Source of the DNA: Candidatus Nanoarchaeia archaeon
GTDB taxonomy: Archaea > Nanobdellota > Nanobdellia > Woesearchaeales > GW2011-AR9
NCBI GenBank assembly: GCA_035290865.1
Contig: DATDTM010000047.1
Location: 14,127 to 78,126, forward strand
Length of the DNA stretch: 64,000 nt
Direction of reading: 5' to 3'
Position 1 is the stretch's first letter; every line of letters begins with the position of its first letter. The notes beneath the pieces were generated by a model. The model ran no database searches and was not told the DNA's origin. It saw only the letters and a program-made list of their open reading frames with translations. This document shows, in pieces, positions 20,399 to 57,300 of the stretch. The translations under genes and the position numbers were made by a program.

Positions 20399-23300
20399 TT
20401 ATCTCTTCCCCACCATCATCACAAAAGCCAGAAAACTTTCTAATTGTAAATACTCGTCCGAACCTTCTACCATTCGGAACTCCACCTCCCCGCATTTATC
20501 TACTAATTCTACTTTCTTCCGATCCTCTAATTCTAAATTCCAGATCTCTTTCTGGATCTGCTTGATGATATCTAATCCCGATAATCCATAATCTAACATC
20601 AGATCTAACAATTTCTTTCTAGAATCTAAGAAACTTCCTTTTACTGCTAAAGCCAGTACTTCTTTAACCTCTTTGGGCTTGGCTACCGAAGCCATGGAAT
20701 AGACCAGTTCGGGAGTGATCTCTTTCTGTAGGATTGCGCAGCTCTGCAGGATATTCTCTAATCTGCGGCAGTCCCCATCGCAGACTTCAAACAAAGCTTT
20801 CTGCGCTTCTGCCCCGATCTGCAGTTTCTCTTCATTGGCAATACCTTTGATCACTTTATAGATCTCTTCTTCTGCTAAGGGCTTGAACCTGAATACTGCA
20901 CATCTGCTTTGTATAGGATCGATAATTTTCGAAGAATAGTTGCAACTTAAAATAAATCTACAGGTCTTGGTATAATTCTCCATCGTTCTTCTCAAAGCCT
21001 GCTGCGCTTCTTTGGTTAACGCATCACTTTCATCCAGATAAATTAATTTAAATGGTGCATCCCCTAATGCTTTAGTTCTGGCAAAATCTTTTACCTTCAC
21101 TCTGACGATATCTATCCCCCTCTCATCCGAGGCATTTAACTCCAGAACATTCTGCCTCCAGTTTTCACCGAACAATTGTTTGGCGATGACTAAAGACAGG
21201 GTCGTATTGTGCAAAGTAAGACCCCCTCCATGTCCACCAATGAAATTATGGGTACCTACAACATTTAAATCATAAACATAATCTCCTTTAACATTTTCCA
21301 CTGATTTAATGGTATCCCAATAAATCTCAGCCTTGGCCAAATACTCGAGCAGCTCGAGACTACTCAACAGTTCCTGAGAAAATATTCGTTCCTCTAATAT
21401 TTGTTTAACAACAATAAAAACTGAATTTAACTTGCATACCGCCTGTAGAGAAAGCCCGTCATTATTGAAGTAATAGTTTATCGATGCTGCCGATTCATCC
21501 ATTCTCCTTCCGATTTCAGCGTAAGAGATAGAGAATAGCTGGATCGCCCTAACTATATTCTGGCGTGCAACTAGTTGTTCCCGAAGATGAGAACTAAGCT
21601 CACCAGCCCCGTGAACCTGCAAGTTTTTCATTACCTTTAATATTCTTATTAAGTTGGCAAGGGTAGGTTCTCGCTTTCCCTCGTAGTATTCTTTAAGTCT
21701 ATCGTAGCGTATTCCAGATAAGGCCCCTATATGTGTACGAGAAGACGGAGCGCAGAGTTGTGAGAAAACAGCTCCTACTTCATTTTCTACGGTGGGTGGA
21801 AAGCGTTCACAAAGCGTTATGGTTTCTAATCCCGTTTTAATTCTGCTTCGGGCCAGATCGCAGATTACCTGATATAACTTTTGAACTCTAATCCTGCTCC
21901 CTTTTTCCCGCTCAAAGATATGCTCAACAAAAACCGCTTCGTTTAATTCTTTCTGCTCGATGCCCAATAATTTTATGGTCTCTCCAAGATGCTCTTTACT
22001 AATCGTCATTACATCTACATTGGTGTTGCTTGCCCGCTGGCAAACAATGGTCTTAACTCTGGGATTTACTTTCTCTTGGAATCGTAGAATCTCAGCAATC
22101 GAATTTATCGTAAGGTAATATTGTCGTTTTCTATTTTTTATATGAGGATGAATTCCCCAGCGCAGTAATAGGTAGGGTAATCCTTCAATCATTGTTTTGC
22201 TGGTACTGGAAAGCTCAATTATATTTTTATAACAGGAACCATCACATTCGAAGTATCCTCGTATAAATGCGGCCACATACTCATCTGGGGCAGTAAATAA
22301 TTCTGAAGGTACAGTAATCATGTCTGCTTTAGGTTTGTGAAGAGGAATAGAGTAAAAATGTTCCAGTAAAGCTACTAATACCCTGCATTTCATAATTTCT
22401 ATATAGGGGACTCCTTTTCGTTCTTTTTCTTGGAAACGCAGCTCAGAGCCAAATAGTAGCTTGCTCAATTCCACGAATCGTGAGCGGAGAAAATTATTGC
22501 AGTTATAAAAACGAATTGACGAAGTACGAACATGCCCATCGCCAAAAACTAAACCCAGCCATTCATAAAAATCTGGCACAGGCGTTCTAAAATGAAATAT
22601 GGTAGTTGAAGGCGAATGGAATTTTCCTTTCCATAGCAACTTCTCTACTAAAGAAAAGTCAGTAACCAAAGCGTAGGGAATAATAGTAGAATCAACTTGT
22701 TTTTTAGTTAAAGAGTATTGTCGTGGCTTTTTCAAAGAGGAAGATAGTATCTTCTCTTTTATCAATGAAGCAATTGCCCAGTTAACTACTTTATGTTTTT
22801 CTCCAATCTTAACTGAAATTTCTGCAGCCGTGGCTCCCTCTACTGGCTGGAGATACTCCAACACTTTGGATTTAACTCTAACATATAGGGGGTGGGGTGG
22901 AAGAGAGACACTTTTTTTTAACACTGCCCAAAAACAGGGGTGCTTCTCCCAGCATAGTTCCCAACGGCTAAGATGAGGACGAATTACTAAAGGTGAAGCA
23001 ACCAGATTATTTGGACGAAGCTCTTCTGCTTTAACCCAAGTGGGTACGCCTTCTTTTAATACTAAAAATGGATGTTCTGGAGTTGTAGTAACCCGTTTTC
23101 CTGCAGAAGTGCGTACACATAATAACTTTCCAGCATATTCTCGGTGAAAGTAAGCTATAGATGCAGGGGAAATCTCACCCATAGCATTAAGTGTCATAAC
23201 TTTGGTTAACTTTTCATTAAAGCAATCTTTTATTGACTTTATAGCGCCAGTATCAGTTATGATGGGAGTATCTCCCGTAACGCACTTTCCCACTCCCGCC

Positions 23301-25582: not shown

Positions 25583-25948
25583 GGTAGTAGTGGCAGTTAG
25601 CTGAGGGTATTTATTGCCCAGGAAAGTCCGCCCACCAAAAACAGGCCACTCCTAGGAAGGAGAGGGAGAAATTCCCTGGCTCTGGCTTCAGAAACGACAC
25701 GTCCTGCAGAATGGGATGATATGGCGAAGTTCCTTGCGAAAGGAATGAGTTAACCTATGGACGTCTCTGCAGGGAACGATGAAACGGCGAACCCCTTGTT
25801 GAGATGTAAATTTCAAAGGGCTCTTAGAGATAATAGCCCTGCCGGTGCAAGTGCAGTTCTGCACGCTCAGTCGAATGCTAACCTAAGCCATCGCAGTCAC
25901 AGGTTGACTGTTTGGGCTTAACCAAAGGCGGCTTATGTCACTCTACCC
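25583..25948 (+). ncRNA. rnpB: RNase P RNA, archaeal type (candidate)
   Basis: ORF-free 550-bp gap containing the universal P4 motif cAGGAAAGUCCGccc near the 5' end and acAGgttgactgtttGGGCUUAacc near the 3' end (compare E. coli ACAGAAcCCGGCUUA); ends ggtag(t)agtggca at 25583 and tgtcactctacc at 25936 can form P1; followed by a T8 run. Confidence 0.55.
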
Positions 25949-30835: not shown

Positions 30836-33298
30836 ATGTCCACTACTCAAAAACAAATCTTCACTAAAAAAGAATCTCTAGGCATTTTTGGCAAGGACCC
30901 GCAGGAAAGAACCACCGAAGAATTAATCAATTATGGAATCGTTAATATTGATAAGCCTAAAGGCCCCACTTCCCACCAAGTAAGCGCTTATCTCCAGAAA
31001 ATTCTAGGGATAGAAAAAGCCGGCCATTCCGGAACTTTGGATCCCGGAGTTACCGGAGTCCAGCCTATTGCTCTAGGCAAAGCTACCAGAATTACCGAAT
31101 TTTTTCTTACTGCCCCTAAAGAATATATTGCTTTAATGCACCTGCACCGAGATTTCGAAGAGGAAAAAATAAAAGAAACTTTCCAAAAGCTTATCGGAAA
31201 AATATCCCAGCTTCCTCCGCTTAAATCCGCAGTAAAAAGGCAATTAAGGACCAGAGAGATTTACGAAACAGAAATTTTAGAGATTAAAGGTAGGGACATC
31301 TTATTCAGAATACGCTGCCAGGCAGGAACTTATATCAGAAAATTCTGTTTACATCCTCAAACAAATATTTTAACTAATAAAGGCTCTTTAAGTGCTTCGG
31401 ATTTTTTTTCTGATCATCCAAATGTATATTCATACCATTTAGGCAAGATGATTGAAAAAAAACCTTCCGCAACTCAAAAAATCTTTTCTCCTAAAAAACT
31501 AATTAAAATTACCCTCTCTTCCGGAATAAGCTTTATGGTTACTCCAGATCATGAAATGTTAACTTCACAAAAAGAAGGTTGTAAAATGATAGATGCGAAG
31601 ACACTTAGAAAAGGAGATTTTCTCGTTAAAAGCCTCTTTTTTCCTAGCATCTCAAAAGAGTATGTAATTGCAGACTTGTTGGACGATAATTATCTAATCC
31701 AACAAGAAGAGATTAAAGAACAGTGTAAACAAGCATTTATCTCCAAATATGGAAGTATTCGGGCAATGTATCGTAATCTAAAACTAGATAGAAAAGCATT
31801 CTTAGCCAAAGCAAGTTCTGCCATAACGATTCGGCACTTAAAACTAGCGGGAATATATGAAAAAGTTAAGAAGAATATTCACATTTTTAAAACGCACAAA
31901 GGTAACCTTATTGAGATGAAAGAATTTAAAGAAGACTTTTTCTATCTATTGGGTTTAATTGCTTCTGATGGAAACAACACCAAAGAGAAAAGAACAGATC
32001 GTTATACTAGAATAAAATTTCATAACAACGAGGAAAGATTGATTGATAATTTTTTAGGTGCATATCAAAAAATATTTCCTTCCATCCCTATATCTAAAAA
32101 AAAAGTAACAGATAAGCTGTGGCAGTTGGATTCATCAAATAGTTTCTTAGCCACCATAGCCGCTTCATTAGGTATTAAGAGTCCCCAGAAAGAATCCTCG
32201 TTGTCACCGATTATAAACTTAAAAGATAATTTTATCAAATCTTTTTTACGCGGGTATTTTGATGGAGACGGCTCAATATATCATAAAAAGACTACTACCA
32301 ATGATAAGAGCAAAATTTGTATCCATACCATCAACCATACTGATGCAACAAATCTACATAAAATGTTATTAAAGGTAGGAATTCAAAATAAAATATTTAA
32401 AAGAAAGCATCATTCTAATATCATTAAAAAAACAAGTACAATATACGATGTAACAATCGGGAATATTCCCGCAGAGAAAAAATTTATCATCGAAATTGGA
32501 ACAACCCATCCTAAAAAAGCTGAAAAATTTAAAGAGGTATTAAGCTTAAATTATCAAGCTGAACCCGAGGATTATCTTTATATTGGTTTTCATTACAAAG
32601 AAGAGATTAGAAAAAATAGATCAAAACTGCACCAAATGGGCGGAAACCTTTTTCGAGTTCTAAATACCAACACACCGATTACTCGAGCATTCTATAGAAA
32701 AGCTTCAAAGATAGTAAACTTGCCTCAGTTAGACGAATTTGTCATAGAAAAAATTAAATCTGTAGAAAAAGTATCCAAATGTGAATTTGTGTATGACCTT
32801 ACTGTTCCTGAAACCCACAATTTTCTTATCGAAACCGGTTTTGTCTCTTCTAACTGCCATGATTTCGGCTTGGCTTTAGATACTGGAGCGCATATGATAG
32901 AACTAAGAAGGATCATGGCTGGGCCCATGACTGAAAAAGATAATCTGGTTAGCTTAAACGATTTGAGTGATGCCTATCATTTCTATAAAGAAGAAAATAA
33001 TGATAAATTCTTGCGTTATTGCATCCAGCCGATAGAGGAAGCTCTGAAATTCATGCCTAAATGCTGGGTTTTAGATAATAGCATCCAAAGCTTGACTCAT
33101 GGAAGGGATTTAGCCATTCCCGGAATCAGTAAATTAGAGAACTTTCCTAAAGGCAGTTTAGTTGCTATTCTTACCCTAAAAGGAGAGTTAATCGCGGTAG
33201 GGGAAGCTTTGATGTCTGCAGTAGAGATTAATACCCAGCAGAACGGCCTGGCTCTGAAATTAAAAAAAGTGTTCATGGAAGCGATAGAATCAATATAG
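30836..33298 (+). CDS. cbf5: H/ACA RNP pseudouridine synthase Cbf5 (TruB family, PUA domain) interrupted by an intein
   Basis: N-extein ...GHSGTLDPGVTG...CQAGTYIRKF, then intein CLHPQT...GFVSSN, then extein CHDFGLALDTGAHMIELRRIMAGPM (Cbf5 consensus AGTYIRSLCHDIG...GAHM.ELRR); C-terminal PUA domain. Exteins total ~317 aa. Confidence 0.85.
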   Translation: MSTTQKQIFTKKESLGIFGKDPQERTTEELINYGIVNIDKPKGPTSHQVSAYLQKILGIEKAGHSGTLDPGVTGVQPIALGKATRITEFFLTAPKEYIALMHLHRDFEEEKIKETFQKLIGKISQLPPLKSAVKRQLRTREIYETEILEIKGRDILFRIRCQAGTYIRKFCLHPQTNILTNKGSLSASDFFSDHPNVYSYHLGKMIEKKPSATQKIFSPKKLIKITLSSGISFMVTPDHEMLTSQKEGCKMIDAKTLRKGDFLVKSLFFPSISKEYVIADLLDDNYLIQQEEIKEQCKQAFISKYGSIRAMYRNLKLDRKAFLAKASSAITIRHLKLAGIYEKVKKNIHIFKTHKGNLIEMKEFKEDFFYLLGLIASDGNNTKEKRTDRYTRIKFHNNEERLIDNFLGAYQKIFPSIPISKKKVTDKLWQLDSSNSFLATIAASLGIKSPQKESSLSPIINLKDNFIKSFLRGYFDGDGSIYHKKTTTNDKSKICIHTINHTDATNLHKMLLKVGIQNKIFKRKHHSNIIKKTSTIYDVTIGNIPAEKKFIIEIGTTHPKKAEKFKEVLSLNYQAEPEDYLYIGFHYKEEIRKNRSKLHQMGGNLFRVLNTNTPITRAFYRKASKIVNLPQLDEFVIEKIKSVEKVSKCEFVYDLTVPETHNFLIETGFVSSNCHDFGLALDTGAHMIELRRIMAGPMTEKDNLVSLNDLSDAYHFYKEENNDKFLRYCIQPIEEALKFMPKCWVLDNSIQSLTHGRDLAIPGISKLENFPKGSLVAILTLKGELIAVGEALMSAVEINTQQNGLALKLKKVFMEAIESI
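31346..32854 (+). mobile_element. intein (~503 aa) with LAGLIDADG homing endonuclease inside the Cbf5 catalytic region
   Basis: Begins with Cys (tgt at 31346), ends ...SSN (aac at 32852-32854) followed by Cys; blocks FYLLGLIASDGNN and FLRGYFDGDGSIY; ETHNFLIETGF terminal block. Confidence 0.75.
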
Positions 33299-33316
33299 GC
33301 CATTAAATGGAATAAA

Positions 33317-36196: not shown

Positions 36197-37618
36197 TCAG
36201 GCCTTAATTCTATGTGAAGGTAATCCTTTTCCAGCTTGTATATTCTTCACTGCTTCCAGACAGCGCGGCCAAAGCTTTTGTGATTCAGCAATATAGGTGA
36301 ATTCCTCTTGAATTACCTGCTGTGCTTTTTGATAGAATGCAGCTGCATCAAAATTCATGAATTCTGTACGGAGTTCTTGGGCAAAGCGGATTAATTGCCT
36401 GTATCTTCCTGAATGCTGGTCGCTATCTCTAATTCTTTCTTCAACATCTGCACAAACTTTTCTTCCCAGAGACAAGATTGGAACAGTTTCTTCATCTGTA
36501 ATCGTTCCATCATAATCAAAAGACATAGTAACTGGTCCGATTCCACTAAGCGACTGGCGTAATTTATCTTTGAGCAAATTTGCAAACTCCTCATTCACAA
36601 TTTCATTGGGAAGAGAAGCTCTTTCATGGGCATTACGATCATGGTGCTGGAAAGCTTTTATATGGGCAGAAGCGTAACCTTCTCTTTGAATCCAAAGCCG
36701 ATAAGCATAATTCTCAAAACGTAACTTTGTCGGAAAGAATGCTGGCAGGCCTTCGGTATTATCATATCCGGAAGCTCCACAGGCATTTTTCCAATTCTCT
36801 TTGGTTACAAAAGGATGGTAAACAGATACAATAAATACATGACCATCATCCTGCAAACTTTGGGCGGAAGGGTCATTAAGAAAGAAATAAGCGAAATCTA
36901 AAGAATCTAAATTATCTGTGCCGGTTAAACAAGTTTCTGCCATTTTTATTCTTGCTTCAGAAAATTCTCCTTTAGAAAGAACTAAATGAAAAACACTTTC
37001 TGAAGCAGCCAGGATCTGAGATTTATTTTTATAGAGATCGGCTTTAGGATCTTGAACATATTCTCCTCTAAGAAAACCGTTGACTACTCCCGCCGTCTGG
37101 CCTAAAACTTCCAAAAAAGCGCTGACTAAATCCTCTTCTATTTTACAGGGGCTTACCTTCTTTAAAGAGATTGGAGAACCTTTGATTACTAAGTTAGGAT
37201 CTTCTCTTCTCTTATTCAAGTCAAAAGTAACTAGCCCATATGGGCGAATATCATCATCTACTGCCATGAATTTTTGTCCTAAAGTATACAAAAGAATATG
37301 ATTACGATTACCTCCAAAACTAGGTCTTAACATTCTTTCTAGGATGATCCTATCTTGGCCAGAACAATTCACTTCTACAGCCAATTCCTCTAAAAAAGCT
37401 TGTTTCTCCTTTCTTCCCACCACTAAAACCGGCCGATGTAATTGAGGGAATATTCTAGAGAGATTAGCTGCTGCCAGATTATGGTCTGAATCATCAAAGA
37501 CATAAATCGGTATTTCATGACCAAATTTAGAAAAATGAGCATCGTAATCTAAAACGGTTTGGACCACTCTCTCTGGTCGATAAGTAGGAATAGTTAAACA
37601 AAAACGATCAAGACCCAT
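36197..37618 (-). CDS. hypothetical protein (473 aa)
   Basis: ORF only; N-terminal LTIPTYRPER faintly resembles a GT2-type motif; unverified. Confidence 0.4.
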   Translation of the reverse strand: MGLDRFCLTIPTYRPERVVQTVLDYDAHFSKFGHEIPIYVFDDSDHNLAAANLSRIFPQLHRPVLVVGRKEKQAFLEELAVEVNCSGQDRIILERMLRPSFGGNRNHILLYTLGQKFMAVDDDIRPYGLVTFDLNKRREDPNLVIKGSPISLKKVSPCKIEEDLVSAFLEVLGQTAGVVNGFLRGEYVQDPKADLYKNKSQILAASESVFHLVLSKGEFSEARIKMAETCLTGTDNLDSLDFAYFFLNDPSAQSLQDDGHVFIVSVYHPFVTKENWKNACGASGYDNTEGLPAFFPTKLRFENYAYRLWIQREGYASAHIKAFQHHDRNAHERASLPNEIVNEEFANLLKDKLRQSLSGIGPVTMSFDYDGTITDEETVPILSLGRKVCADVEERIRDSDQHSGRYRQLIRFAQELRTEFMNFDAAAFYQKAQQVIQEEFTYIAESQKLWPRCLEAVKNIQAGKGLPSHRIKA

Positions 37619-45524: not shown

Positions 45525-46433
45525 TCAATAAATCTTCTTGATCCAAGTACCTAAAACTAATTGGTACTGTAAACTTTGTTCATATTCATAACTTAAATCC
45601 AAAGTTAAGGTAGTCATATAAGAATCCTGCCCTTTCAGGTAAGTCTCGCAGATCAAAAGCGCTTCCTGTTTTTGGTCAGTAAAGACGAATTTGGTTTCCT
45701 CATTGACAAAATTCTGAAAAGCACATTTCAGAAAATCTTCTCCCCCCAGCTGGGCTTGATTTAATTTCAGATAGCCGATTTTACTATTACTTCCGCTCCA
45801 ACTGCCTCCCCCGTTATTTCGCAGATAGAACCTAAATTCCGCTTTAGTTCCTCCAGCTAAGGGCATCACAATCTCTTCCATCTCTGAGACTGCTACTGGC
45901 GCGCCTTGGCCGGAATAAGATTTCTCCTCCTCCACTTTACAGCCGGAATCATAAACTTCATAAAGATTAGGGTTCAGACAGACTGAATCTGCAAATTCTA
46001 AAGTAGATTCATAGCTAGCTTTAACAAAAAAAGTATTGGAGTATTTTTCTGCATTTCCATATAAAGATCCGGCCAGACCATTAAACTCTAAAAAAGCTTT
46101 ATCCCCGGAAGGATTAATCAGACTTCTCCCCCCTAACTGATTGAAGGGCTGCTCAGTTGGATTAATCTGAAAATAACGATCATCTAAACCCACAATGCGC
46201 ACTTTTCCGTTGATTAAGTCATAAGCTGCTTGATTATCTAATTTAACTATCAGCTTGAATTCTGAATTAGGATACATTTTTTCCGGAGGAGCATTTTCCA
46301 GAAAGCTTAATTGTAATCCTCCATAACCTTGCTTGAAGTTATAAGTAGTTTGTTTTTCTCCGGGAGAGTCGCAGCTGAGGAGAAGGAAAGAAAAAACAAG
46401 TAAAGTAAAGTAAATCATTAGTTTAATTTTCAT
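45525..46433 (-). CDS. secreted lipoprotein-like protein, paralog family 1
   Basis: LLLSCDSP lipobox; clear similarity to the 16064 and 17961 products. Confidence 0.5.
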   Translation of the reverse strand: MKIKLMIYFTLLVFSFLLLSCDSPGEKQTTYNFKQGYGGLQLSFLENAPPEKMYPNSEFKLIVKLDNQAAYDLINGKVRIVGLDDRYFQINPTEQPFNQLGGRSLINPSGDKAFLEFNGLAGSLYGNAEKYSNTFFVKASYESTLEFADSVCLNPNLYEVYDSGCKVEEEKSYSGQGAPVAVSEMEEIVMPLAGGTKAEFRFYLRNNGGGSWSGSNSKIGYLKLNQAQLGGEDFLKCAFQNFVNEETKFVFTDQKQEALLICETYLKGQDSYMTTLTLDLSYEYEQSLQYQLVLGTWIKKIY

Positions 46434-48349
46434 TCTATATTCCCCACAATTTGTTCCAAATCTGAATCTGTTCCTGTTGTTCCATTAGCCATTACTGTTT
46501 TCTGACCTGAAGAAGAGTAAGTATGTTCAACAAATATAAATATGTTTTCATTTAAAGTTAAATTAGTTGGTAAAGTACTTTGAACAACATTTTCACTGGT
46601 ATCGAAAAACCAGTTAAAAGTATTGGGGTAAATAGCCACATTTCTCATAAAGAAACGGAAAGCTGAATAATGAGATTGGTTAGTAAAGAGTAAAGAGGTA
46701 TTGTAAATATCTACTTCCAAAAGCCCATCTACTGCAAAACTGCTGAAAGAAGTAGTATTAAACAATAATACGCCATTAGTATAACTAAATAAAGCACAAG
46801 AAGTACCTAAACAATTAGCCCCATTATTAACTATTTCCAAGCTATCTGTATTATAACCCCCCTGTCTCTTAATTTGGTCTACAAATCCAAAGTTTAAATT
46901 CTTTAAAGTGAAATTTGCGCTAGAGTTTATCTTAGAGTTACTGCCAAAAGCAGAGGTATTCAAAGCAATAGTATTATTCCCGATAAAGAGATTATATCCT
47001 AAACCAATTTCTCCGTCCAGATCCATATCTTTCAAAAGACCATTATCACTAGTATTAATCCATCTAATTTCCCCATAAGAATTATTGTAGACTAAATAGT
47101 TAATATAACCGCTTCCAGTAAGGTCATAAATCTCTGGGGTATTAATATAATTAGCAGAGAGATGGTTATTTAAAAGAAGATTATCTCCTGAATTCATTCT
47201 TAAATAAATTCCGTAACCGCCGTTTCCGGTAGTAATGATGGTATTATTGTTTAAAATATTAAAATTAGAAGCAGTTCTTAATTCAATCCCTGGTGCGCCG
47301 ACAGCACCGGTAGTAACAACATTGTTGGATAAACTGCTAGAGGAAGAATTCATCAATCTGATACCATTAGCAGTGCTGCCGCTAGTAGTAACATTGTTCC
47401 CAAAGATATTTGTAAAATCAGATTGATTGTTTAAAAACATACCATTACTTAAAGCACTAATTATAGTAATAGTATTATTCAGAATTGTTCCGTTCGCAGC
47501 ATGATTAAAATAAACTCCGTGCTTATAAGAAGTAGAAATATTGCCCTCCTGGATGTTACAATTCTTAATCGTAACATTATCAAAACCGATATTTCCCACC
47601 CCATAACCTAAAGTTCCGCCAATAGAATAATTAATTAAATAACCCTTACAATCTAAAACAATGTTATTAACGCCAATAGTAAAACAAGTTCCACTGGAAT
47701 TAATCTTCTGGGTTAAAGTATAAATTGCCCCCGTTGTATCTAAAGTTCCGCATGCAGACTGGTCTGGATCAATATATGCTTGAAAGTTCTGTCCGGAGAG
47801 GGAAAAAGTAAATTGATTATCGCTATATTTAGGAGCCTCGTAAGATATTTTTATTGCAAAAGGTTTGCTGGTATCTATTTGTGCAGGAGTTTTAGTGAAA
47901 CCATAAAACTTTTTCTTAGTAAAAGTATGAATTTGTTCAACTGCTTCTAATTTTCCATCCATACCTTCTTGGACAATTATATCTGTGTAAGTTTCAGGGA
48001 CAAGATTAAATTGATTTGAGTACATTACAGTTTTGTTTTTGATCACTTCTTTTTCAAAACTAAATTGAATTGCCGGGTTGTTCAGAATTGGCTTAATTGC
48101 ATTCTGATTTTCAATTTCAAAAATGGCTTCGCAACTCTTCCAGCCATCATCTACTGCATCAGGTTTCCAGATGCAGGAGATATACGGTTTAGTAGAAGTA
48201 ATTATATTAGAATAATTAGAATGTTTATAACCAAGATTAAATACTTCCTGTCCTTCAAGAATTACTGCAGGCAGAAAATCTTCTGCTAAAACAAACATGC
48301 TCATCAAAAAAAGAGCAAATACTATTCCAAGATATATTTTCTTTACCAT
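46430..48349 (-). CDS. secreted right-handed parallel beta-helix repeat protein
   Basis: Signal peptide; repeated N/G/T-rich ~22-aa units (GNNVTTSGSTANGIRLMNSS..SNNVVTTGAVGAPGIELR..NNNTIITTGNGGYGIYLR) typical of PbH1 beta-helix repeats. Confidence 0.55.
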   Translation of the reverse strand: MVKKIYLGIVFALFLMSMFVLAEDFLPAVILEGQEVFNLGYKHSNYSNIITSTKPYISCIWKPDAVDDGWKSCEAIFEIENQNAIKPILNNPAIQFSFEKEVIKNKTVMYSNQFNLVPETYTDIIVQEGMDGKLEAVEQIHTFTKKKFYGFTKTPAQIDTSKPFAIKISYEAPKYSDNQFTFSLSGQNFQAYIDPDQSACGTLDTTGAIYTLTQKINSSGTCFTIGVNNIVLDCKGYLINYSIGGTLGYGVGNIGFDNVTIKNCNIQEGNISTSYKHGVYFNHAANGTILNNTITIISALSNGMFLNNQSDFTNIFGNNVTTSGSTANGIRLMNSSSSSLSNNVVTTGAVGAPGIELRTASNFNILNNNTIITTGNGGYGIYLRMNSGDNLLLNNHLSANYINTPEIYDLTGSGYINYLVYNNSYGEIRWINTSDNGLLKDMDLDGEIGLGYNLFIGNNTIALNTSAFGSNSKINSSANFTLKNLNFGFVDQIKRQGGYNTDSLEIVNNGANCLGTSCALFSYTNGVLLFNTTSFSSFAVDGLLEVDIYNTSLLFTNQSHYSAFRFFMRNVAIYPNTFNWFFDTSENVVQSTLPTNLTLNENIFIFVEHTYSSSGQKTVMANGTTGTDSDLEQIVGNIE

Positions 48350-51300
48350 TTTGTCTGGTTGATTAAAGTTTCGACTTGTTTACTTATTTCATCTGGAGTT
48401 AAAGTCTGATTTTCCCAGATTACTAAAACATTATTATGTAATCCGACGATATTTGTATAAGCATCGCTTCCGGTGAGGAAATTAAAAACCCAGGTTTGGT
48501 TTCCGGAAATGATTACTTTATCGAATCTTCCGCTTTTCTGGGTATTGTTAAGGTAGCGGACATAGAGCTGTTGGCTAGTATAAGTTTGGTAAGCAATTAA
48601 TATAGAATCAGCAGCACCTTGTTCAATAGCGGTTCTGGCTTCTGATTCATTAGCAGAGATTTTGAAAGTCCAGTTGTAAATTATAAAATTACTTTCTTTA
48701 GCTAAGTCTTTTATCTGGATAGAAAGATCATGTTCTCCCCCAGTCAAAGGAATAGCTGGAGTATAAGTAGTGGTGGTAGTATTGATAAAAGGTGCCACTA
48801 CATCTCCATCAAGTTGTAATATTACTGAAGAAGTATTTACGCCGGAATATGAATCATAATAATTTATTACAATAGTGGGTGTATTATTTCCAACTATAGT
48901 ATTATTAGCTGGAGTAATATTAACTATCTCTGGAGCAAGAGTATCTATCTTAAATACAAAATGAGTTGTATTTCCTAGGTTCCCCACTTTATCTTTAGCT
49001 AGGGAATGAAGATACCAAAATCCATCAGTTAACCCAATAGCATTTTGAGACTGGTTATTTTGGGAAACAGTTCCTCCAATACCAGTGATATTAATTAAAG
49101 AATCCATTGTCCATAAATTCATGATATCTGGGGTGGTTGATTCGTTGTTATTAACTACATAATAATATCCGTAAATGCTTGAATGAATATCTGTTGCTGA
49201 AAAGTTAAAGATAGGAACACTAAGATTATACCAATCATTGTTATTAGGATGCGTGGGCGAAGTTATAGTTATCATACTGGGAGCATCAGAATCTATATAA
49301 ATGTTAACTGGGTTAGACCAAGTGCTATTATGCTGTAAAGCATCCTGAGCATAAATTCGGAATGTATGGCTACCAGAAGTAACATTTACATGATAAGACT
49401 GACTATTTCCTAAACTAAACAAATTCCCATCAAGTTCTCCAACATAACTTACCACTCCGCTGCCTATATCCCCAGGATTAGTCCAAGTATAATAAGGACT
49501 ATTATGTTGGGTCCAATTATCTCCAGAATGCAATTCTTTTATTATAGGCGTACCTGGATTAGAGGTATCAATATATAAACTTACATTTCCGGAATGACCT
49601 AAATTACCGGGATTATCCACTGCCCGAACATAAATAGTATGAACCCCTTCTGTTTGTGGTAGAGTAATAAAAGAAGTATTTAGTCCTATATTGTTCCAAC
49701 TTCCAGCGTCAATCCGGTACTCGTAATGGTTAATTCCATTAGTGTCCTCCACTGGATTCCATGAGATTGTATGGATATTTTGAGTACTCCAATTATTTGG
49801 AGAGGAACTTAAAACTGGTGCTAACGGAGGGATTACATCTCCCACAAAGATACTTTTAGTATAAATGTTATTAGACTCATTTGACTCAATAATAATATTA
49901 TAATAATCCGCATTAATTGTAATGGTGTGATTACTATAAGTAGAATTCCAGCTAAAATAGGTAGAGTTAGTAGAAGATTTGGTTACAGATAAGTTCTGTT
50001 CTTGAACATTACTATTTACTGTAAATCTTACCACAAAATTATTGGCATCTGTACCTCCTTCGTTACGGATAATTATATTTACTCCTAAAACCTCTGGTTC
50101 AGCTGGATTTAGCGGGGTTTGAATAATATCACTTGCATCTAAAGTTAAGTCTGCTTCTGCAGGATTAATCGTTATCGGTTGCTGTCTATTGTCTTTTAAA
50201 TCGGAAACATCTGTTGCTGTAACATTAATCTGATAAAACCCTGGTGCTGCAGGAGCAGTAGTAAACCCCTCATATAAATCAGAAGAAGAATTGTAAGTTA
50301 ATAAAATAAGAACATTATTAACCGTTGCATTCACTGTACTAACATTAAGATTATCAGTTACGTTCACTTTTAAAGACAAGTTAGCATTAACATAACTAGT
50401 ATCAACAATGATAATCTCGTTAATCTGGGAAGTTGTTTTATCCTTCACAAGAACAGATAAGTTTAATTCATTGTTATTTTCGTCTGATTCAGTGATATTA
50501 CCTAATGGGTCTACTCTAAGGGTTAAAAGATGTTGGCCGTAATATGCAGGCCATAAGAAATAAGCGGTATTACTTGCATCTGAAAGAATATTTAAGCTTT
50601 TGTTTTGATATAATATGCTGTCAACAAACAATTCCAAAGTGAAATTATTTACTCCAGTCCCACCATCGTTATGAACAATCACGGAAAGATTGGTTAATGT
50701 TCCGTCAGTAAGAGGAAGCGGAAAGAGATGAATATCATTGCTAAATAAAGTTAAATCCGGGATTGTTGAGTAAATTTCAAGCGATATTTTTTTCGTTGTC
50801 GCTAGGCCGTTAATATCTTTAGCCGTGATAATTAACTCGTAAATTCCTGCATTAGGTGCAGTAAAAGTATTTTCGTATAAAGCGGAGGTAGAGTTATAAT
50901 CTAATACTAAAGTAGTATTACTAATTGTAGCTGTTACTACGCTAATATTAACATTATCAGCTATATTTACTTTAATTGTGGATGGAGTTCCTTCTACGGA
51001 ACCATGCAGAATTTCGCCTATAATGGGGGGAGTAACATCAAGAATAGAAATATTAATACTTGCTTCATTATTTAACTCGTTTGCTTCAGAAATTATATTA
51101 GAGGCATCAGTCTTAATCGTAATGCTATGATTCCCATAAGTTGTTGTCCAGTTAAATTGCGTAGAACTATTTGATTGGTTCGCTATCGATAAAGTTTTAC
51201 TCTGATCAGAGATGTCATCAATTAATAGTTCAACAATAAAATTATTTGCTGGTTGATCACCTTTATTGTAAACTGTTGCATTGAAAATTAACAACTGATT

Positions 51301-54300
51301 TTCATACAACACTTTTTGATCGTAATGGATATCGCTAGAAGTCAAAGTCAAATCCGGGTCCTCACTATGAATTGAAAGACCACCAGTAGATTCTGTAGCC
51401 CCCGACGTAGAATTAGTGGCGGTTAAATTAACCCAATCACTAGCCATCACGTAAAGAGTATATTCTCCAGGACTACTTGGAGCAATTAGAACTCCTTCGT
51501 ACCATCCGGAAATCTGATTATAAGTTAGAGTTATTGATTGAGTTGAGAAAGTAGCATTAACTTTAGTTAAATTAATATTATCAGTGGCATTAACTTTAAC
51601 AGTAAGATTACTGCTTACATTAGCGGGGTTAGGAATAATGATAAGGTTGTGAATCTTCGGAGAGATATTATCTGAAACGGAAAAATCGACAATGATATCT
51701 GAAAGATGGATAATGCCCTTACTAGACGTAGTGAAATTCAAAGGGACAAGACAATTATTGTTCTGGTCCGGGGTACAAATAGCTAGGTAATCATTAATCG
51801 CAGTAATGTTCAGATCAACTTCTTGCGGTGAATTTGATTCATCCAAAGTTCCAGCGTATTGATAATCAATAGTTCCATCATTTCCTGTATCTTCATCTAT
51901 GCTGGTTGGATATCCAAAAGTAATGAAGAAATTATCATAATCGACGTAACTGATATTATCATTTTGATAAGCAGGACAATAAGTAAAGTTCAGATTTGTG
52001 TCTAAAGTGGTATCGTTTCCTATTGTAATCTCCGAAGCACTACAGAATACATAAACTTTATCTTCAATATCAGAATTGTTAAATATTCCTAATCTATTTT
52101 CATTACCAGTTAAAGCAAATTTATGAAAGTTATATGCTGGAGAAAGCCCGCTGTATAACACATCATCAAAAGAGATACTATTTGAAACATTCCAAAGATG
52201 TTCACTGATTGAAGCTGAACCTTCATTACCACCTCCCAAACAAGACCCACCACAGGAGTTACAGCCACCACTGCTACCTCCATTACCTTTATCTCCATTA
52301 AAAGTAGTGATGTTTTTTGTTTTGACTTCTGTTGCAGTAAATATAGAATGCGATTTTTCAGCGTTAACTCCATTACCACCTTGACAATTCCAACCAGCAT
52401 CATTACTATCAGAAGCCCCTCCATTGCCCCCATTACCACCATAATAATTTAAACTGGTTGAATTAATGATGATAATAGATGATGATTTATTTCCATAGAG
52501 ATAAATAGTGCCACGACCCCCAATGCCTCCATTTCCTCCAATAACCGTTCCAGTATTAACACAAGAACCTCCGGTTTGATAAGCATGTCCCCCATTCCCT
52601 CCTTTTCCCCCGTAAGAATTAAGAACTGAATTATCAATTTTTAAGTTATTTTTGATGTAAAGTTCTATTTTCCCCTCATATCCATTCCCTCCGTTATCCC
52701 CATAATGAGTTCCATCAGAAGGGCAAGTTTCCTCAAAATCAGAACCTTGAGAACCTTGGTTACCATACCCATTAAGTGTTGCATTTGTAATATTGATCCA
52801 TCCGTAGGTGGTATTTAACCGGATTAAACCGGGTGACCCTTGGCCATTAATTATTGTATCATGCACCCAAATAGAAGCATTATTTGTGTCGATGTAATTA
52901 CCGGAAAGAGTGCCATTACAATTAATAATATTTCCTTCAACCTCAACGCAGCCAGAGATTGCCGTGGGATCTAAGACAAAAGTATATCCTAACAGATTAA
53001 GAGTAACATTAAACTTAAATTCTTCTGCACCAATGGGAATATCTTCCAGACTATAATCTAATAACTCGCTTTTATTGACGGTTAAGTCTAAAGTATCTTT
53101 GATATTTCTCTCTTTAAAACTATATCTTTTAGAATTATCTAAACTGATATTAAAGTCTGTCTCACCAAGATTAAATAAAGTATTAGTAATATTTATTCGG
53201 ATTATACAGTTCTGTAAACAATGATAATATTCCTGGTCTGTTTCTATCTTTAGATACTGGCTGAGATCAGCAGAATTTCTATAGATTATCTCTTTACCAC
53301 TCAGCTGGACTGCATTAAAATTTAAGTGAGCAAAGCTAATGTTCTTTTGTTTATTTCCCTCAGCAAAACCGGGGTCTTCTTTAGTTAAGACAAACGAATA
53401 TTCTTCACCTATAGTTAAATTCATTAATTCCTGCCATGTTCCTAAACATTGGCTATTAGAGAAATCCCATTCTTTGCATTTGTAAAGAGTTTCCCCTTCT
53501 GCGATGGAAGTAATCCTCACAGAATCAAATTCCAAATTTTCAGGGTTAACGGCATAAACGTCTTTAAATTCTAAGTCTTCAAAAGAATCTATTTTTGGAT
53601 AGCTTAAACCCAATTCTTCATTCTCATTAAGTCTTATATTTTTAAATTCAATCTTAATCTCTGGGTTATCTTCTGGAATAATAGTTAAGTTATAAACCAC
53701 ATTTTCAGGTTCATCTTCTAGCTCATCTTTAGAATATAGACTAAAACCAATTAATTCTCCATTCTCATCTTTAACTTTAAATTTATATTTTAGAGGAGTT
53801 TTATCTATTGGTTTTTGATTAATTTTAATTTCTAAATTAACTGAATTTGGAGAGATTACTTCATCTCCGGAATAATTTGCAATAATAGTATAAAATCCTG
53901 GAATTCTACTAAATGTATCCCAGTTTATTTCTGCTTTCCCTCCAATATCAGTAATATCTGAACCCAAATACTCATCTGCATAAAAGTCTATTTTTTGGTC
54001 TGGAATCGGGGTTTGATTATTATCCTTCAGGAAAGCTTGGATATTAATTATCTCCCCAACAATAGCAGTTAGTTTATCTATTATTAAAGTTAACGCAGTG
54101 GAGATACTAGTGGATTCATATATTGGTTCAGCCTCATTAATGGGCAACCCCAGGGGTAGATTAATAATTGCTCCTGTTGGAGTCTGAATAGAACCATTTA
54201 CTGATTGAGTAACATTTTCCTCTAACTGATTCTCAATAGGAGTTAGATTTGTTGATAGTTCTTCACTTTCTACCGGAATTCCAAGAGTATTATTTACTGT

Positions 54301-54384
54301 TTGAGAATCATTTTCCAAAGCAAGGACTAAAGTTAAAAATAGTAAAAACGATCCAAAAATAATAATTCTTTTTTTCTCTATCAA
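48343..54384 (-). CDS. giant (2013 aa) cell-surface protein with Gly-rich, Ig-like, CARDB and FN3-like modules
   Basis: Signal peptide; GGNGGNG/GGKGGNGG glycine-rich block; three CARDB-like repeats (LTLTSSDIHYDQ...PANNFIVELLID, LTLFSNDIHLFP...GVNNFTLELFVD, LTLDASDIIQTP...DANNFVVRFTV); FN3-like PPLAPVLSSSPNNW...HYEYRIDAGSW. Confidence 0.7.
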   Translation of the reverse strand: MIEKKRIIIFGSFLLFLTLVLALENDSQTVNNTLGIPVESEELSTNLTPIENQLEENVTQSVNGSIQTPTGAIINLPLGLPINEAEPIYESTSISTALTLIIDKLTAIVGEIINIQAFLKDNNQTPIPDQKIDFYADEYLGSDITDIGGKAEINWDTFSRIPGFYTIIANYSGDEVISPNSVNLEIKINQKPIDKTPLKYKFKVKDENGELIGFSLYSKDELEDEPENVVYNLTIIPEDNPEIKIEFKNIRLNENEELGLSYPKIDSFEDLEFKDVYAVNPENLEFDSVRITSIAEGETLYKCKEWDFSNSQCLGTWQELMNLTIGEEYSFVLTKEDPGFAEGNKQKNISFAHLNFNAVQLSGKEIIYRNSADLSQYLKIETDQEYYHCLQNCIIRINITNTLFNLGETDFNISLDNSKRYSFKERNIKDTLDLTVNKSELLDYSLEDIPIGAEEFKFNVTLNLLGYTFVLDPTAISGCVEVEGNIINCNGTLSGNYIDTNNASIWVHDTIINGQGSPGLIRLNTTYGWINITNATLNGYGNQGSQGSDFEETCPSDGTHYGDNGGNGYEGKIELYIKNNLKIDNSVLNSYGGKGGNGGHAYQTGGSCVNTGTVIGGNGGIGGRGTIYLYGNKSSSIIIINSTSLNYYGGNGGNGGASDSNDAGWNCQGGNGVNAEKSHSIFTATEVKTKNITTFNGDKGNGGSSGGCNSCGGSCLGGGNEGSASISEHLWNVSNSISFDDVLYSGLSPAYNFHKFALTGNENRLGIFNNSDIEDKVYVFCSASEITIGNDTTLDTNLNFTYCPAYQNDNISYVDYDNFFITFGYPTSIDEDTGNDGTIDYQYAGTLDESNSPQEVDLNITAINDYLAICTPDQNNNCLVPLNFTTSSKGIIHLSDIIVDFSVSDNISPKIHNLIIIPNPANVSSNLTVKVNATDNINLTKVNATFSTQSITLTYNQISGWYEGVLIAPSSPGEYTLYVMASDWVNLTATNSTSGATESTGGLSIHSEDPDLTLTSSDIHYDQKVLYENQLLIFNATVYNKGDQPANNFIVELLIDDISDQSKTLSIANQSNSSTQFNWTTTYGNHSITIKTDASNIISEANELNNEASINISILDVTPPIIGEILHGSVEGTPSTIKVNIADNVNISVVTATISNTTLVLDYNSTSALYENTFTAPNAGIYELIITAKDINGLATTKKISLEIYSTIPDLTLFSNDIHLFPLPLTDGTLTNLSVIVHNDGGTGVNNFTLELFVDSILYQNKSLNILSDASNTAYFLWPAYYGQHLLTLRVDPLGNITESDENNNELNLSVLVKDKTTSQINEIIIVDTSYVNANLSLKVNVTDNLNVSTVNATVNNVLILLTYNSSSDLYEGFTTAPAAPGFYQINVTATDVSDLKDNRQQPITINPAEADLTLDASDIIQTPLNPAEPEVLGVNIIIRNEGGTDANNFVVRFTVNSNVQEQNLSVTKSSTNSTYFSWNSTYSNHTITINADYYNIIIESNESNNIYTKSIFVGDVIPPLAPVLSSSPNNWSTQNIHTISWNPVEDTNGINHYEYRIDAGSWNNIGLNTSFITLPQTEGVHTIYVRAVDNPGNLGHSGNVSLYIDTSNPGTPIIKELHSGDNWTQHNSPYYTWTNPGDIGSGVVSYVGELDGNLFSLGNSQSYHVNVTSGSHTFRIYAQDALQHNSTWSNPVNIYIDSDAPSMITITSPTHPNNNDWYNLSVPIFNFSATDIHSSIYGYYYVVNNNESTTPDIMNLWTMDSLINITGIGGTVSQNNQSQNAIGLTDGFWYLHSLAKDKVGNLGNTTHFVFKIDTLAPEIVNITPANNTIVGNNTPTIVINYYDSYSGVNTSSVILQLDGDVVAPFINTTTTTYTPAIPLTGGEHDLSIQIKDLAKESNFIIYNWTFKISANESEARTAIEQGAADSILIAYQTYTSQQLYVRYLNNTQKSGRFDKVIISGNQTWVFNFLTGSDAYTNIVGLHNNVLVIWENQTLTPDEISKQVETLINQTKW

Positions 54385-57300
54385 TTTTGAACTCCGTATC
54401 CTGAAATATTCAATTTAGCATTAGTAACATTAGCTGTTTTCGGTAATTTAATATAGACCACTTGGCTGCCTGCACCGGCATAAGTAAGATTTTTAATGTA
54501 TGAACCATCTGAAAGCGTAGTAAAGGTTAAACTTCCTGGACCGACAACCGGTATAATTACATTAGCGGTAGAACTTACATTATGGCTATCTGTAGCCTTT
54601 AAAGTAATTTTGTGAAAACCAGAAGAAAGATTGTTTAAAGTAAAAGCGTTCCCGGTCCCGATTACCCCATCACGGTCAGAAATCCAGACTAAAGAATTTC
54701 CGGAAAGATTACCATCTTCATAATCTTGAGCAGTGCCTTCAAAAGTAATGTTCCAGCCTAAAGAATAGACTGAGCCAGGAACTGGAGAAACGATGGTAAC
54801 ATTCGGCGGAGCAGAGATTACAGTTACATTTACAGAGACATTAGCACTTTGGTTATCATTATCTACTGCTGCTAAAATAATTTGATAAGATCCAACTGTA
54901 AAATTAGACCGATTAAATTCTGTCCCCGAACCTAAATTACCATTTAAAGAAGATTTCCAGGACAGAGAATTTCCGACTAAAGAACCGGTTTCAGGATCAG
55001 TTGCTATGCCCTTAAAAGTGAAGAGAACTCCATTAATTATCTGTTGATTATTTGTAGGAGAGATTATCGATACTATCGGTGGTTGAGGCTCTAAAACCAC
55101 AAATTGAGTCTGGTCGAGCCCAGTAAGGCCATAACTATCCATTACTGAAGCAGTAATCAAGTGTGCACCCTGAGATAAGGCTTTAATAAAAGATAAGCCA
55201 GTTCCAAGATACCCATCAAGACTGGAAGTCCAGTTTAATTTTGAAGATAAATCTCCATCATGCGGGTCGGTGGCAGTTCCATTAAAAGTGATGCTGTTTT
55301 CGGTATAATAAAAGGTGGCATTATTTTCTGGTAAAGTAATATTAATTATAGGAGTAGATTCTTCAATAATAATGCTTAGAACACTAACTGCACTTACCTG
55401 GCTAAAGTCGGTGGCATTTAAAGTGAGGTTATGTACCCCAACACTTAAAGAGTTAGTAAAAATGGTTCCGCCGCTACCTAAATAACCGTCGATACTTGAA
55501 GTCCAAATAAGAGCGTTACCCATTATGTTCCCATCTTCAGGGTCTAAAGCTTTACCATCCAAATAAACTGTTGCTCCTTCCGGGAAAGCCTGGCTGTTAG
55601 AGGGAGAATTTATGGTTATTACTGGTGGTTGTGAAGCCAGAACCAAAATAATTACCTGATCAACGTCTTTATTTCCATCAGAATCTTCCACAGTTAAATA
55701 AATAACCTGATCTCCCAAACTAAGGTTAGCATAGATTAAAGAGCCGCTACCAAGATAACCATCTTTACTGGAAGTCCATTCATACAAAGATTCATTTAAA
55801 GATTCATCTTTATAATCCGTGCCATACCCTGTAAGAATAGTTGGCAGATTGACATAAGCTGGTGCCCCGTTAGGTGGAGCGACAATCGAAGTAGTAGGCT
55901 TAGGATTAACCACATTTACTAACTCGTTGATTTGGTTGTTAAGTTCGTTTAGTTCACTGGTAACATCAGTGTAATCAACCTCAACACTAATATTACGTAT
56001 CCCAATAACGGAAAAGTTAGTTAAGATGCTGATTAAAGCAGTTTCGTTGCTGGCAAGATTAGTTATTTCCTTTTCCCCGATCAAATACTGGGCAGTATAA
56101 TCATTGGGAGAAGTATAACTCTCCATATATTTTAATTTAAAATTACTGGCATTAGCCGGCCCCTCATTTCTAACTGCAACTGTAATATTTAGAATTTCAT
56201 TAGCATCCGGGGTTAGGGAAGAAAAGCCTAAGGCAAGAGGAACTAAATCCGGTTTATTGGGGTTTTTTAAAGTGGCAAAGTAAACTGAATTATTTTCTGC
56301 GGCATAAGAATAAAGAGTGGCATTTTCTATCAATTCTGCAGTATGATTGCCTAATTCTCCTTCCACTTCCGGGTTAACCTTAGTTAATTCCACACCGCCA
56401 TAAACTGTATAATCCCACCAATTCCAGCCATTATTATAATACTGGAAAGAGTACAAATATTGCCAGGCTTTGGTTTCATAATAGCTTTGATCAAAGTTTT
56501 TGTAAAGGCCGGAGAGATTGTTAGAATCAATTAGCTTATTGTAAATTATATTTTCTCCCGGCTGCTTTTTATACCATTGAGCTAGGGCAATAGAAGCGTG
56601 GGCTCTTCGCAAGGCTTCATATTTTGGGTCAACATTAACTTTTATTTCAGCTTCAGCCGCAATCTCAGCTAAGCCCGCTTCAAGGTCAGCTTTGAATTGC
56701 GCTAATTCAGCCTGGTAGCCGCCGCCATTTACCCAGACTGCGTCCACTACAGAATTAACTTTTAGGGTGGAATTAGTGATAAATATTTTGCACCCGGTTC
56801 CATTTGCAGTTACGGAATCTGAACTGATCCAGACCCGGGCATAGAAACCAGGCCATTTGCTGGGATCGCCAACAACATTCTCTTCCCAGTTGTTAACCAA
56901 ACTTTCAACTAAATTCTGGCTTTGGCCAAAATGATCCATTTTGAGTTGGACGTCGGCATCAAACATAATCTGGCCTAATTCCGTGTGGGATAAGTTACCA
57001 TCAACTTTAGAAACATCACCCACTTTTCCTGCGAAACCCGGGCCAGGCTTAGTATCCATGGTCACCCACATTTTGTGATTAGGGACAATTAAGCTGGTTA
57101 AGAAAGCGTTAGTAGCTTGGACGGTAGCGTTAGTGATATTGATCAGAACATCAGTTGTGTTAGCTTCTTTTCCTTTCATCACGGCGACAAAACCTTCTTG
57201 AGGATCGCAGGTAGAGATATAGTTGAGATTAGCGGAAGTGAAGTTGATGCCGCCGGTTTTTTCTGCAACGTCTTCAGGGGAAGTGTCTATAAAATTTGTA

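Follow-up and report, generated by a model that had tools for sequence, protein, structure and literature searches.

An archaeal gene with two ends that encode Cbf5, the pseudouridine synthase of H/ACA ribonucleoproteins (RNPs), and a middle that encodes 503 further residues beside the active site raises the question of what the inserted segment is and how the gene can still provide a working enzyme. The gene lies in a stretch of 64,000 nucleotides from a Candidatus Nanoarchaeia archaeon (contig DATDTM010000047.1 of assembly GCA_035290865.1), referred to in its entirety as the window. The evidence discussed below makes it very probable that the cbf5 gene of this DPANN archaeon has been invaded by a class-1 intein carrying a LAGLIDADG homing endonuclease, an element that would be expected to excise itself from the precursor protein and to cleave intein-free copies of the gene.

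The identity of the host protein as Cbf5 is established by sequence comparison. The open reading frame (ORF) starts with ATG and remains open in a single frame across 820 codons, and its flanks match the Pfam families TruB_N (E = 2e-25), TruB_C_2 (8e-20) and PUA (6e-14), with DKCLD matched as well. Both Cbf5 equivalog models of NCBIfam score above their cut-offs, NF003280 at 376.9 bits (cut-off 242) and TIGR00425 at 366.4 bits (cut-off 238), in each case over two stretches that flank the insert. In-silico removal of residues 171-673 leaves a protein of 317 residues that aligns without a gap over the junction with Cbf5 of Pyrococcus furiosus (E ~1e-103), and that also aligns with M. jannaschii Cbf5 and with eukaryotic Cbf5/dyskerin. 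The active-site residues are Asp69, Tyr166 and Arg168, followed toward the C terminus by the PUA domain at 742-812. The ratio of nonsynonymous to synonymous substitution rates (dN/dS) of the exteins, calculated against the closest intein-free allele, is ~0.04, from which the host gene is concluded to be functional. Two small minus-strand ORFs within cbf5 (32725..32928 and 33097..33303) were rejected as spurious, since they overlap the conserved coding frame.

The insert itself displays the anatomy of an intein. Its N-terminal junction reads ...RCQAGTYIRKF/CLHPQTNILT... and its C-terminal junction ...HNFLIETGFVSSN/CHDFGLALDTGAHMIELRR, where a slash outside brackets marks, here and below, the boundary between intein and extein. 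Within the insert, Pfam recognizes Intein_splicing (2e-19, spanning 186-671) and LAGLIDADG_3 (7e-13), and the two NCBIfam models for intein termini are both exceeded: TIGR01445 intein_Nterm (171-243) at 35.8 bits against a cut-off of 24.5, and TIGR01443 intein_Cterm (651-674) at 28.1 bits against 15.6. Conservation was counted in an alignment of 97 full-length homologues from the protein database, in which the class-1 splicing set, namely Cys1, Thr66, His69, Asp484, His491, Asn503 and Cys+1, is invariant throughout (97/97), block F taking the form VYDxT...THNF. Every class-1 feature considered was found except the penultimate His, which is common but non-defining, and the assignment of the insert to class-1 inteins with a nested LAGLIDADG homing endonuclease is supported by both sequence and predicted structure, with domain matches that far exceed anything attributable to chance; splicing and DNA cleavage would be its predicted activities. 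The coordinates of these and other features are collected in Table 1.

Table 1. Features of the cbf5 locus and of the remainder of the window (residue numbers refer to the precursor unless intein numbering is indicated)
Feature	Coordinates	Strand	Basis and remarks
Cbf5 precursor ORF (N-extein, intein, C-extein)	30836..33298	+	820 aa + stop; ORF list, Pfam, NCBIfam; GenBank HLD73160.1
N-extein, aa 1-170, DKCLD + TruB_N, ending ...AGTYIRKF	30836..31345	+	Pfam DKCLD 18-49, TruB_N 55-167; alignment with P. furiosus Cbf5
Catalytic Asp69 codon, GTLDP motif	31040..31042	+	Sequence; alignment with P. furiosus Cbf5 GTLDP; equivalent of TruB D48
GTYIR active-site motif, aa 164-168	31325..31339	+	G, Y and R invariant in 97/97 homologues; Tyr and Arg presumably E. 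coli TruB Y179 and R181
Intein, 503 aa (aa 171-673), HINT domain split by LAGLIDADG endonuclease and helical accessory modules	31346..32854	+	Pfam, NCBIfam, AlphaFold2, Foldseek
Cys1, block A nucleophile (Cys171)	31346..31348	+	Invariant in 97/97 homologues
Block B TPDH, intein Thr66...His69 (T236-P-D-H239)	31541..31552	+	T and H invariant in 97/97; aligns with block B of the P. horikoshii RadA intein
LAGLIDADG motif 1, FYLLGLIASDGNN, aa 369-381, GLIASD208G (intein numbering)	31940..31978	+	Catalytic Asp D208 kept in 94/97
LAGLIDADG motif 2, FLRGYFDGDGSIY, aa 470-482, GYFDGD308G (intein numbering)	32243..32281	+	Catalytic Asp D308 kept in 93/97; Pfam LAGLIDADG_3 466-527
Blocks F and G, VYDLTVPETHNFLIETGFVSSN before Cys+1: D484, H491, Ser502, Asn503 (intein numbering)	32789..32854	+	D, H and N invariant in 97/97; TIGR01443 651-674
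C-extein, aa 674-820 + stop, Cys+1 then CHDFG...GAHMIELRR	32855..33298	+	Pfam TruB_C_2 674-737, PUA 742-812
Cys+1 codon	32855..32857	+	Cys+1 invariant in 97/97 homologues
RFC small subunit, 1012 aa	20399..23437	-	693-aa intein in P-loop
RFC intein, HINT + LAGLIDADG_3	21206..23284	-	...GPAGVGK/CVTGDT...GGLTLHN/TTLSL...; canonical penultimate His, Thr+1
Archaeal RNase P RNA	25583..25947	+	Rfam RF00373, 123 bits, full-length
Giant ORFs, 2013 aa and 1317 aa, CARDB + Ig-like domains	48343..54384 and 54381..58334	-	Adjacent to each other
NosD-like beta-helix protein	46430..48349		Adjoins giant ORFs
ORFs of 473-594 aa	18863..20386, 36197..37618, 60880..62664	+, -, -	No Pfam match at E <= 1e-5

The position of the intein within Cbf5 determines what the insertion means for the host. 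It follows G-T-Y-I-R-K-F, two residues past the active-site Arg of the GTYIR motif; R181 of E. coli TruB is the conserved active-site Arg of the TruB/Cbf5 family and is also present in P. furiosus Cbf5 (PMC3973310). In the 118 closest intein-free relatives in which position +1 could be scored, the residue is Cys in 101, Val in 12, Ile in 4 and Thr in 1, and the +1 Cys of the window protein is, by this comparison, the native residue of Cbf5. Counting along what we take to be the E. coli TruB sequence, a count that reproduces the published H43, D48, Y76, D90 and R181, places Y179 and R181 in GTYIR, and the insertion point presumably falls between the equivalents of TruB residues 183 and 184. Because the insertion comes two residues after the active-site Arg, an unspliced precursor, with a domain of 503 residues wedged into the active-site strand, should be catalytically dead, and splicing would therefore be obligatory for H/ACA pseudouridylation. 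A preliminary description of this DNA had proposed that a Cbf5 gene at 30836-33298 is split by a 503-residue LAGLIDADG intein, beside the catalytic region, directly before a conserved Cys and with two LAGLIDADG blocks; the junctions are exact, the equivalog and intein models lie above their cut-offs, and the position relative to Arg and Cys and the two blocks, at residues 369-381 and 470-482, are all as it had described. The comparison of the exteins with Pyrococcus Cbf5 that it had recommended came out in favour of its proposal, as did the splicing blocks, the lack of which it had regarded as telling against an intein: the residues of blocks A, B, F and G are present and invariant.

A structural model of the intein, generated by AlphaFold2 from an alignment of 13 intein sequences, reached a mean predicted local distance difference test score of 91.9 and a predicted template modelling score of 0.91, with no disordered segment. 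The top matches found by Foldseek in the PDB are endonuclease-bearing inteins, comprising TliVMA (7qss; E 1e-22, target-normalised template modelling (TM) score 0.70), PI-TkoII (2cw7), PI-PfuI (1dq3), PhoVMA (7qst) and PI-SceI (1vde), while the free-standing LAGLIDADG enzymes I-DmoI and I-Tsp061I appear lower in the ranking (target-normalised TM 0.7-0.76, E 1e-7 to 4e-9). In the model, intein residues ~196-383 form a repeated helix-strand pattern consistent with the alpha-beta-beta-alpha-beta-beta-alpha pseudo-dimeric LAGLIDADG fold. Helical segments beyond the HINT and endonuclease cores, at intein residues ~108-177 and 389-454, are present as well, and comparison with PI-PfuI and PI-SceI suggests that they may be accessory modules for DNA binding.

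The same insertion is widespread among archaea. A search with the full-length protein returned 233 clusters at E <= 1e-5, the best 120 of which were examined at their junctions; both junction motifs are readable in about two-thirds of these 120, and all of those read GTY(I/V)R../C ... SN/C.D.G. Among species-representative genomes, the site is occupied in metagenome-assembled genomes of Nanoarchaeota and Woesearchaeota, and in Promethearchaeota, Ca. Hermodarchaeum, Bathyarchaeia and Thermoproteota; it is likewise occupied in the complete genome of Ca. Heimdallarchaeum endolithica (CP084167.1). The copies in Bathyarchaeia, Thermoproteota and Hermodarchaeum constitute a divergent subfamily of ~530-545 residues at the identical site, with 30-37 % identity. 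Beyond Cbf5, the next-closest inteins reside in other hosts, at 21-30 % identity in alignments that extend to as much as all 503 residues. Among them are inteins of the A/V-ATPase B subunit at LTDMTNY/C...SN/CEALRE, found in archaea and several bacterial phyla (L025-L028, L034, L040, L041, L045 and L047), inteins of HdrA-like proteins at TLDCS(I/A)/C (L030, L031 and L038), and an intein in a protein with an RICGI/C motif (L036); bacterial carriers of these sister inteins include Acetothermia, Armatimonadetes, Rubrobacteraceae and Anaerolineae. The sequences suggest that the Cbf5 intein and its sisters with a penultimate Ser form a distinct intein clade spread over several hosts and two domains of life. 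The occurrence of the Cbf5 intein in bacterial TruB was also considered and set aside, as the bacterial matches checked (6 of 12) have ATPase-B, HdrA-like or unidentified hosts, none of them TruB.

The existence of close relatives with an empty site provides a direct view of the insertion. When the spliced extein sequence was used as query, the best 120 matches were all intein-free, headed by P0121 (~95 %) and P0122 (87 %). P0121 is encoded on L080, a contig of 21.7 kb that is syntenic with the window for an intein-bearing RFC, signal peptidase II, peptidase S51, eIF-1A (divergent), cbf5, a metallophosphoesterase and ribosomal protein S3Ae, the two cbf5 genes being 87 % identical in DNA sequence. 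The empty site is precisely colinear with the occupied one, with ATCAGAAAATTC/TGTCATGATTTCGG in L080 and ATCAGAAAATTC/(1509 bp)/TGCCATGATTTCGG in the window. Moreover, the exteins of an intein-bearing variant, P0242, are closest to those of the intein-free P0121 (96.5 %), the window exteins being 94.0-94.6 % identical to both; the empty allele is thus nested among occupied ones, and precise loss or replacement of the intein, or two gains, must therefore have taken place.

Further indications of mobility come from identity and composition. In 51 of 96 comparisons between homologues and the window, the intein is more similar than the exteins; the values are 61 % and 37 %, respectively, for P0075, ~52-54 % and 38-42 % for a set of divergent Cbf5 proteins from DPANN archaea, and 59 % and 49 % for a Hodarchaeota protein. 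The GC content of the intein is 31.5 %, and 26.6 % at third codon positions (GC3), against 39.9 % and 38.8 % for the exteins (30836..31345 + 32855..33295). The putative target, reconstituted from 21 occupied and 2 empty loci, has the consensus GC.GG.AC.TA.AT.AGAAA..T./TG.CA.GA..T.GG., with variation mainly at wobble positions, as expected of a LAGLIDADG target in a conserved motif. Given the empty site, the decoupled intein and extein identities and the GC3 contrast, the intein looks mobile, and homing would be its presumed route.

Several related alleles deserve separate description. A partial protein, P0009, from sequencing run SRR3989344, which also yielded P0244, a near-identical counterpart of the window protein, corresponds to 30836..32770 and is 100 % identical in the N-extein (170/170) and 86 % identical in the intein (474 aa); this pattern could reflect intein variants that co-exist, replacement of the intein within a single population, or a contig that is chimeric. 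On L081 (7325..8269), and also on L082, there is an intein-free cbf5 with exteins 87 % identical to those of the window and with Ile in place of Cys+1 (RKY/ISDFG). The DNA of L081 around the target site is locally diverged, at 72-77 % identity against ~88 % elsewhere, and from its sequence the allele may be homing-resistant and unable to support splicing. The neighbourhood in L081 has in addition gained a HepT/MNT toxin-antitoxin pair beside eIF-1A and a gene with an RVT_1 reverse-transcriptase domain upstream.

Some of the observations weigh against a splicing and mobile intein, and they concern both of its presumed activities. With regard to splicing, the penultimate residue is Ser502, where His is canonical (a substitution that the preliminary description had overlooked), and this could be taken to favour a lineage-specific domain that does not splice, or a cbf5 pseudogene. 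Ser occupies this position in 96 of the 97 homologues, however, and on that alignment it is a fixed property of the family and no lesion of the window copy. Some characterised inteins work without a penultimate His, a residue that is typical rather than defining, and by this precedent its absence is variation and not disqualification. An insert that stayed in place so close to the active-site Arg, only two residues away, would abolish enzyme activity, yet the frame of 820 codons is intact and the exteins are under strong purifying selection (dN/dS 0.04); all other splicing residues are invariant, the models of both intein termini exceed their curated cut-offs, and confidence in the predicted HINT and LAGLIDADG fold is high, which leaves a non-splicing domain or a pseudogene highly improbable. 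As for mobility, the endonuclease might be inactive in an intein that still splices, in which case the element would no longer move but would pass down by vertical descent as a passenger, with occasional losses. Within the closest clade the intein is 89 % and the extein 94 % identical, values that also fit vertical co-descent with one precise loss; there is no dip in identity near the junction in the comparison with L080, so that no co-conversion tract is visible, which weighs against a very recent invasion; and LAGLIDADG motifs are degenerate in some distant homologues, such as P0120, with Asp replaced by Asn in motif 1 and motif 2 broken. The window copy nevertheless retains both catalytic Asp residues, which are conserved in 93-94 of 97 homologues, and the dN/dS of the intein against its three closest relatives is ~0.08 over the whole 503 residues, a value that is only approximate because dS is near saturation, but a degree of purifying selection that splicing alone would not impose on the endonuclease domain. 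The higher identity of intein than of exteins among distant hosts and a GC3 unlike that of the host gene likewise weigh against a passenger, which is regarded as unlikely.

A further alternative, compatible with mobility, is that the host has turned the intein into a conditional switch that gates the formation of active Cbf5 in response to redox state (through Cys1 and Cys+1), temperature or substrate. The location of the insertion beside the active site puts activity under the control of splicing, Cys occupies both junction nucleophile positions, and splicing that depends on conditions has been documented in other archaeal inteins, that of RadA among them (PMC5238726, PMC5790916 and PMC11409957). 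Very close relatives are intein-free, however, which means that the intein is dispensable, and placement in a conserved active-site motif is equally predicted by the choice of an endonuclease target, so that this role is considered improbable. A broader version, in which the Cbf5 intein and its ATPase-B and HdrA-like sisters would form a clade in which the penultimate Ser is fixed, both junctions have Cys, C-terminal cleavage is non-canonical and splicing is conditional (e.g., through a Cys1-Cys+1 disulfide or Cbf5 RNP partners), is decidedly improbable; if true, H/ACA pseudouridylation would be post-translationally switchable in DPANN and Asgard archaea. Finally, the source is a metagenome-assembled genome, in which an assembly chimera or sequencing artefact might arise. 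The identical 820-residue protein is present in several independent sources and on 8 contigs that reach 165 kb in length, a variant with one residue changed is found on a separate ENA contig (L083), and the same architecture occurs in >100 homologous clusters; because the protein has been recovered from independent assemblies, an artefact is ruled out for all practical purposes.

The preferred reading, that of a splicing and mobile class-1 intein in Cbf5, implies the following course of events. The precursor of 820 residues would be translated as one chain, from which the HINT domain would excise itself. An N-S acyl shift at Cys171, aided by Thr236 and His239 of block B, would be followed by trans-thioesterification, in which the thioester moves to Cys674 (+1). 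Cyclisation of Asn673 would then release the intein, presumably aided by the Asp and His of block F, since the penultimate residue is Ser and not His, and an S-N shift would finish the peptide bond. The expected products are a Cbf5 of 317 residues with an intact ...GTYIRKF-CHDFG... active-site strand, in which the ligated junction peptide would read ...TYIRKFCHDFGLALDTGAHMIELR, and a free endonuclease of 503 residues. The latter would presumably cleave cbf5 alleles that lack the intein, at the reconstituted site, approximately ...ATCAGAAAATTC^TGYCATGATTTCGG..., and recombinational repair would copy the intein into the cut allele. Such homing would explain the patchy distribution across phyla.

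With respect to novelty, the protein itself is public as GenBank HLD73160.1, where it is named "PUA domain-containing protein" and carries no intein annotation. The passages of Novikova et al. 2016 (PMC4760082) that deal with frequent intein hosts list RFC-S (36 instances), aIF2, RtcB, the V-ATPase A subunit and others; those passages, from its tabulation of hosts that are frequent in archaea and bacteria, name neither Cbf5 nor TruB, and few inteins are reported there in the core translation and transcription machinery. The preliminary description had regarded Cbf5 and TruB as lying outside the classic intein hosts, and these passages agree with it, although inteins at the Cbf5 site are not rare in sequence databases. 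No published Cbf5 or TruB intein was found in the full-text literature, a coverage that excludes InBase and the supplements of PMC4760082, where an earlier listing is possible; PMC10710043 mentions neither Cbf5 nor dyskerin, and the single mentions of inteins in PMC3608112 and PMC5871332 have no bearing on this allele. What is new is therefore the host protein and the insertion site, the element being of an ordinary kind that holds no surprise in itself.

The significance of the finding extends in several directions. In terms of annotation, archaeal proteins of ~820 residues labelled "PUA domain-containing protein", "LAGLIDADG family homing endonuclease" or "Cbf5" can be corrected to Cbf5 precursors. 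The intein hosts gain an RNA-modification enzyme, a protein outside both the ATPases and the replisome, and this bears on the debate over whether inteins are placed by function or only by the conservation of endonuclease targets. Occupancy of one site in DPANN, Asgard, Bathyarchaeia and Thermoproteota genomes, with inteins that are often closer than their hosts, offers a clean marker of gene flow among these uncultured lineages. In addition, splicing domains that make other demands on their junctions might be obtained from the clade in which Ser naturally replaces the penultimate His.

The remainder of the window contains a second intein, in the small subunit of RFC, and the earlier statement that two intein-bearing informational genes lie within 10 kb of each other is correct. 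The RFC gene of L080, the contig lacking the Cbf5 intein, is also intein-bearing (955 aa). GC3 of the RFC intein in the window is 33.0 % against 46.7 % for its exteins, the same trend as in the Cbf5 intein. The RNase P RNA was the only hit of an Rfam scan of the window at the gathering threshold, with no H/ACA guide RNA among the results, and ARAGORN found no tRNA gene in the entire 64 kb. The giant ORFs with CARDB and Ig-like domains probably encode large surface proteins of a kind common in DPANN genomes. The position of the 473-residue ORF without a Pfam match is conserved in the syntenic contigs L080 and L081.

Comparison with known systems places the locus in context. Relative to intein-free archaeal Cbf5 (P. 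furiosus 2hvy and 3hjw; M. jannaschii 2apo), the spliced product is full-length and colinear, with DKCLD, TruB catalytic and PUA domains, the difference being that the window gene requires protein splicing to make the enzyme. The RFC small-subunit intein, a classic archaeal allele in the same genome, likewise combines HINT and LAGLIDADG_3 within a conserved catalytic motif of an informational protein, but it has 693 residues, ends in HN/T and lies in an ATPase P-loop, RFC-S being among the most frequent archaeal hosts in the passages cited above (PMC4760082). The sister inteins of ATPase B, HdrA-like and other proteins share with the Cbf5 intein the pattern Cys1 ... (V/I)(V/I/S)SN/C with a penultimate Ser, xSN/C being present in most of those checked, and differ from it in host protein and insertion motif. 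Among solved structures, the best match in sequence (E 2e-8) is the RadA mini-intein of P. horikoshii (2lqm, 4e2t), with matching residues in block B (VTPxH) and in blocks F and G (VYDLxxPETHNF); it differs in lacking an endonuclease, in residing in a recombinase P-loop and in its length of 174 residues compared with 503. The closest likeness in architecture is to the solved endonuclease-bearing inteins TliVMA/PhoVMA, PI-TkoII, PI-PfuI and PI-SceI, in all of which a HINT domain is split by a two-motif LAGLIDADG endonuclease with accessory DNA-binding modules, Cys1 and the terminal Asn also being common to them and the Cbf5 intein (Foldseek E 1e-22 to 1e-12, probability 1.0, TM to target <=0.70). 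They differ in sequence, at 12-17 % identity, in their hosts, which are V-ATPase A, DNA polymerase and ribonucleotide reductase, and in having a penultimate His where the Cbf5 intein has Ser; splicing or cleavage has been demonstrated for those inteins and is predicted for the one in Cbf5.

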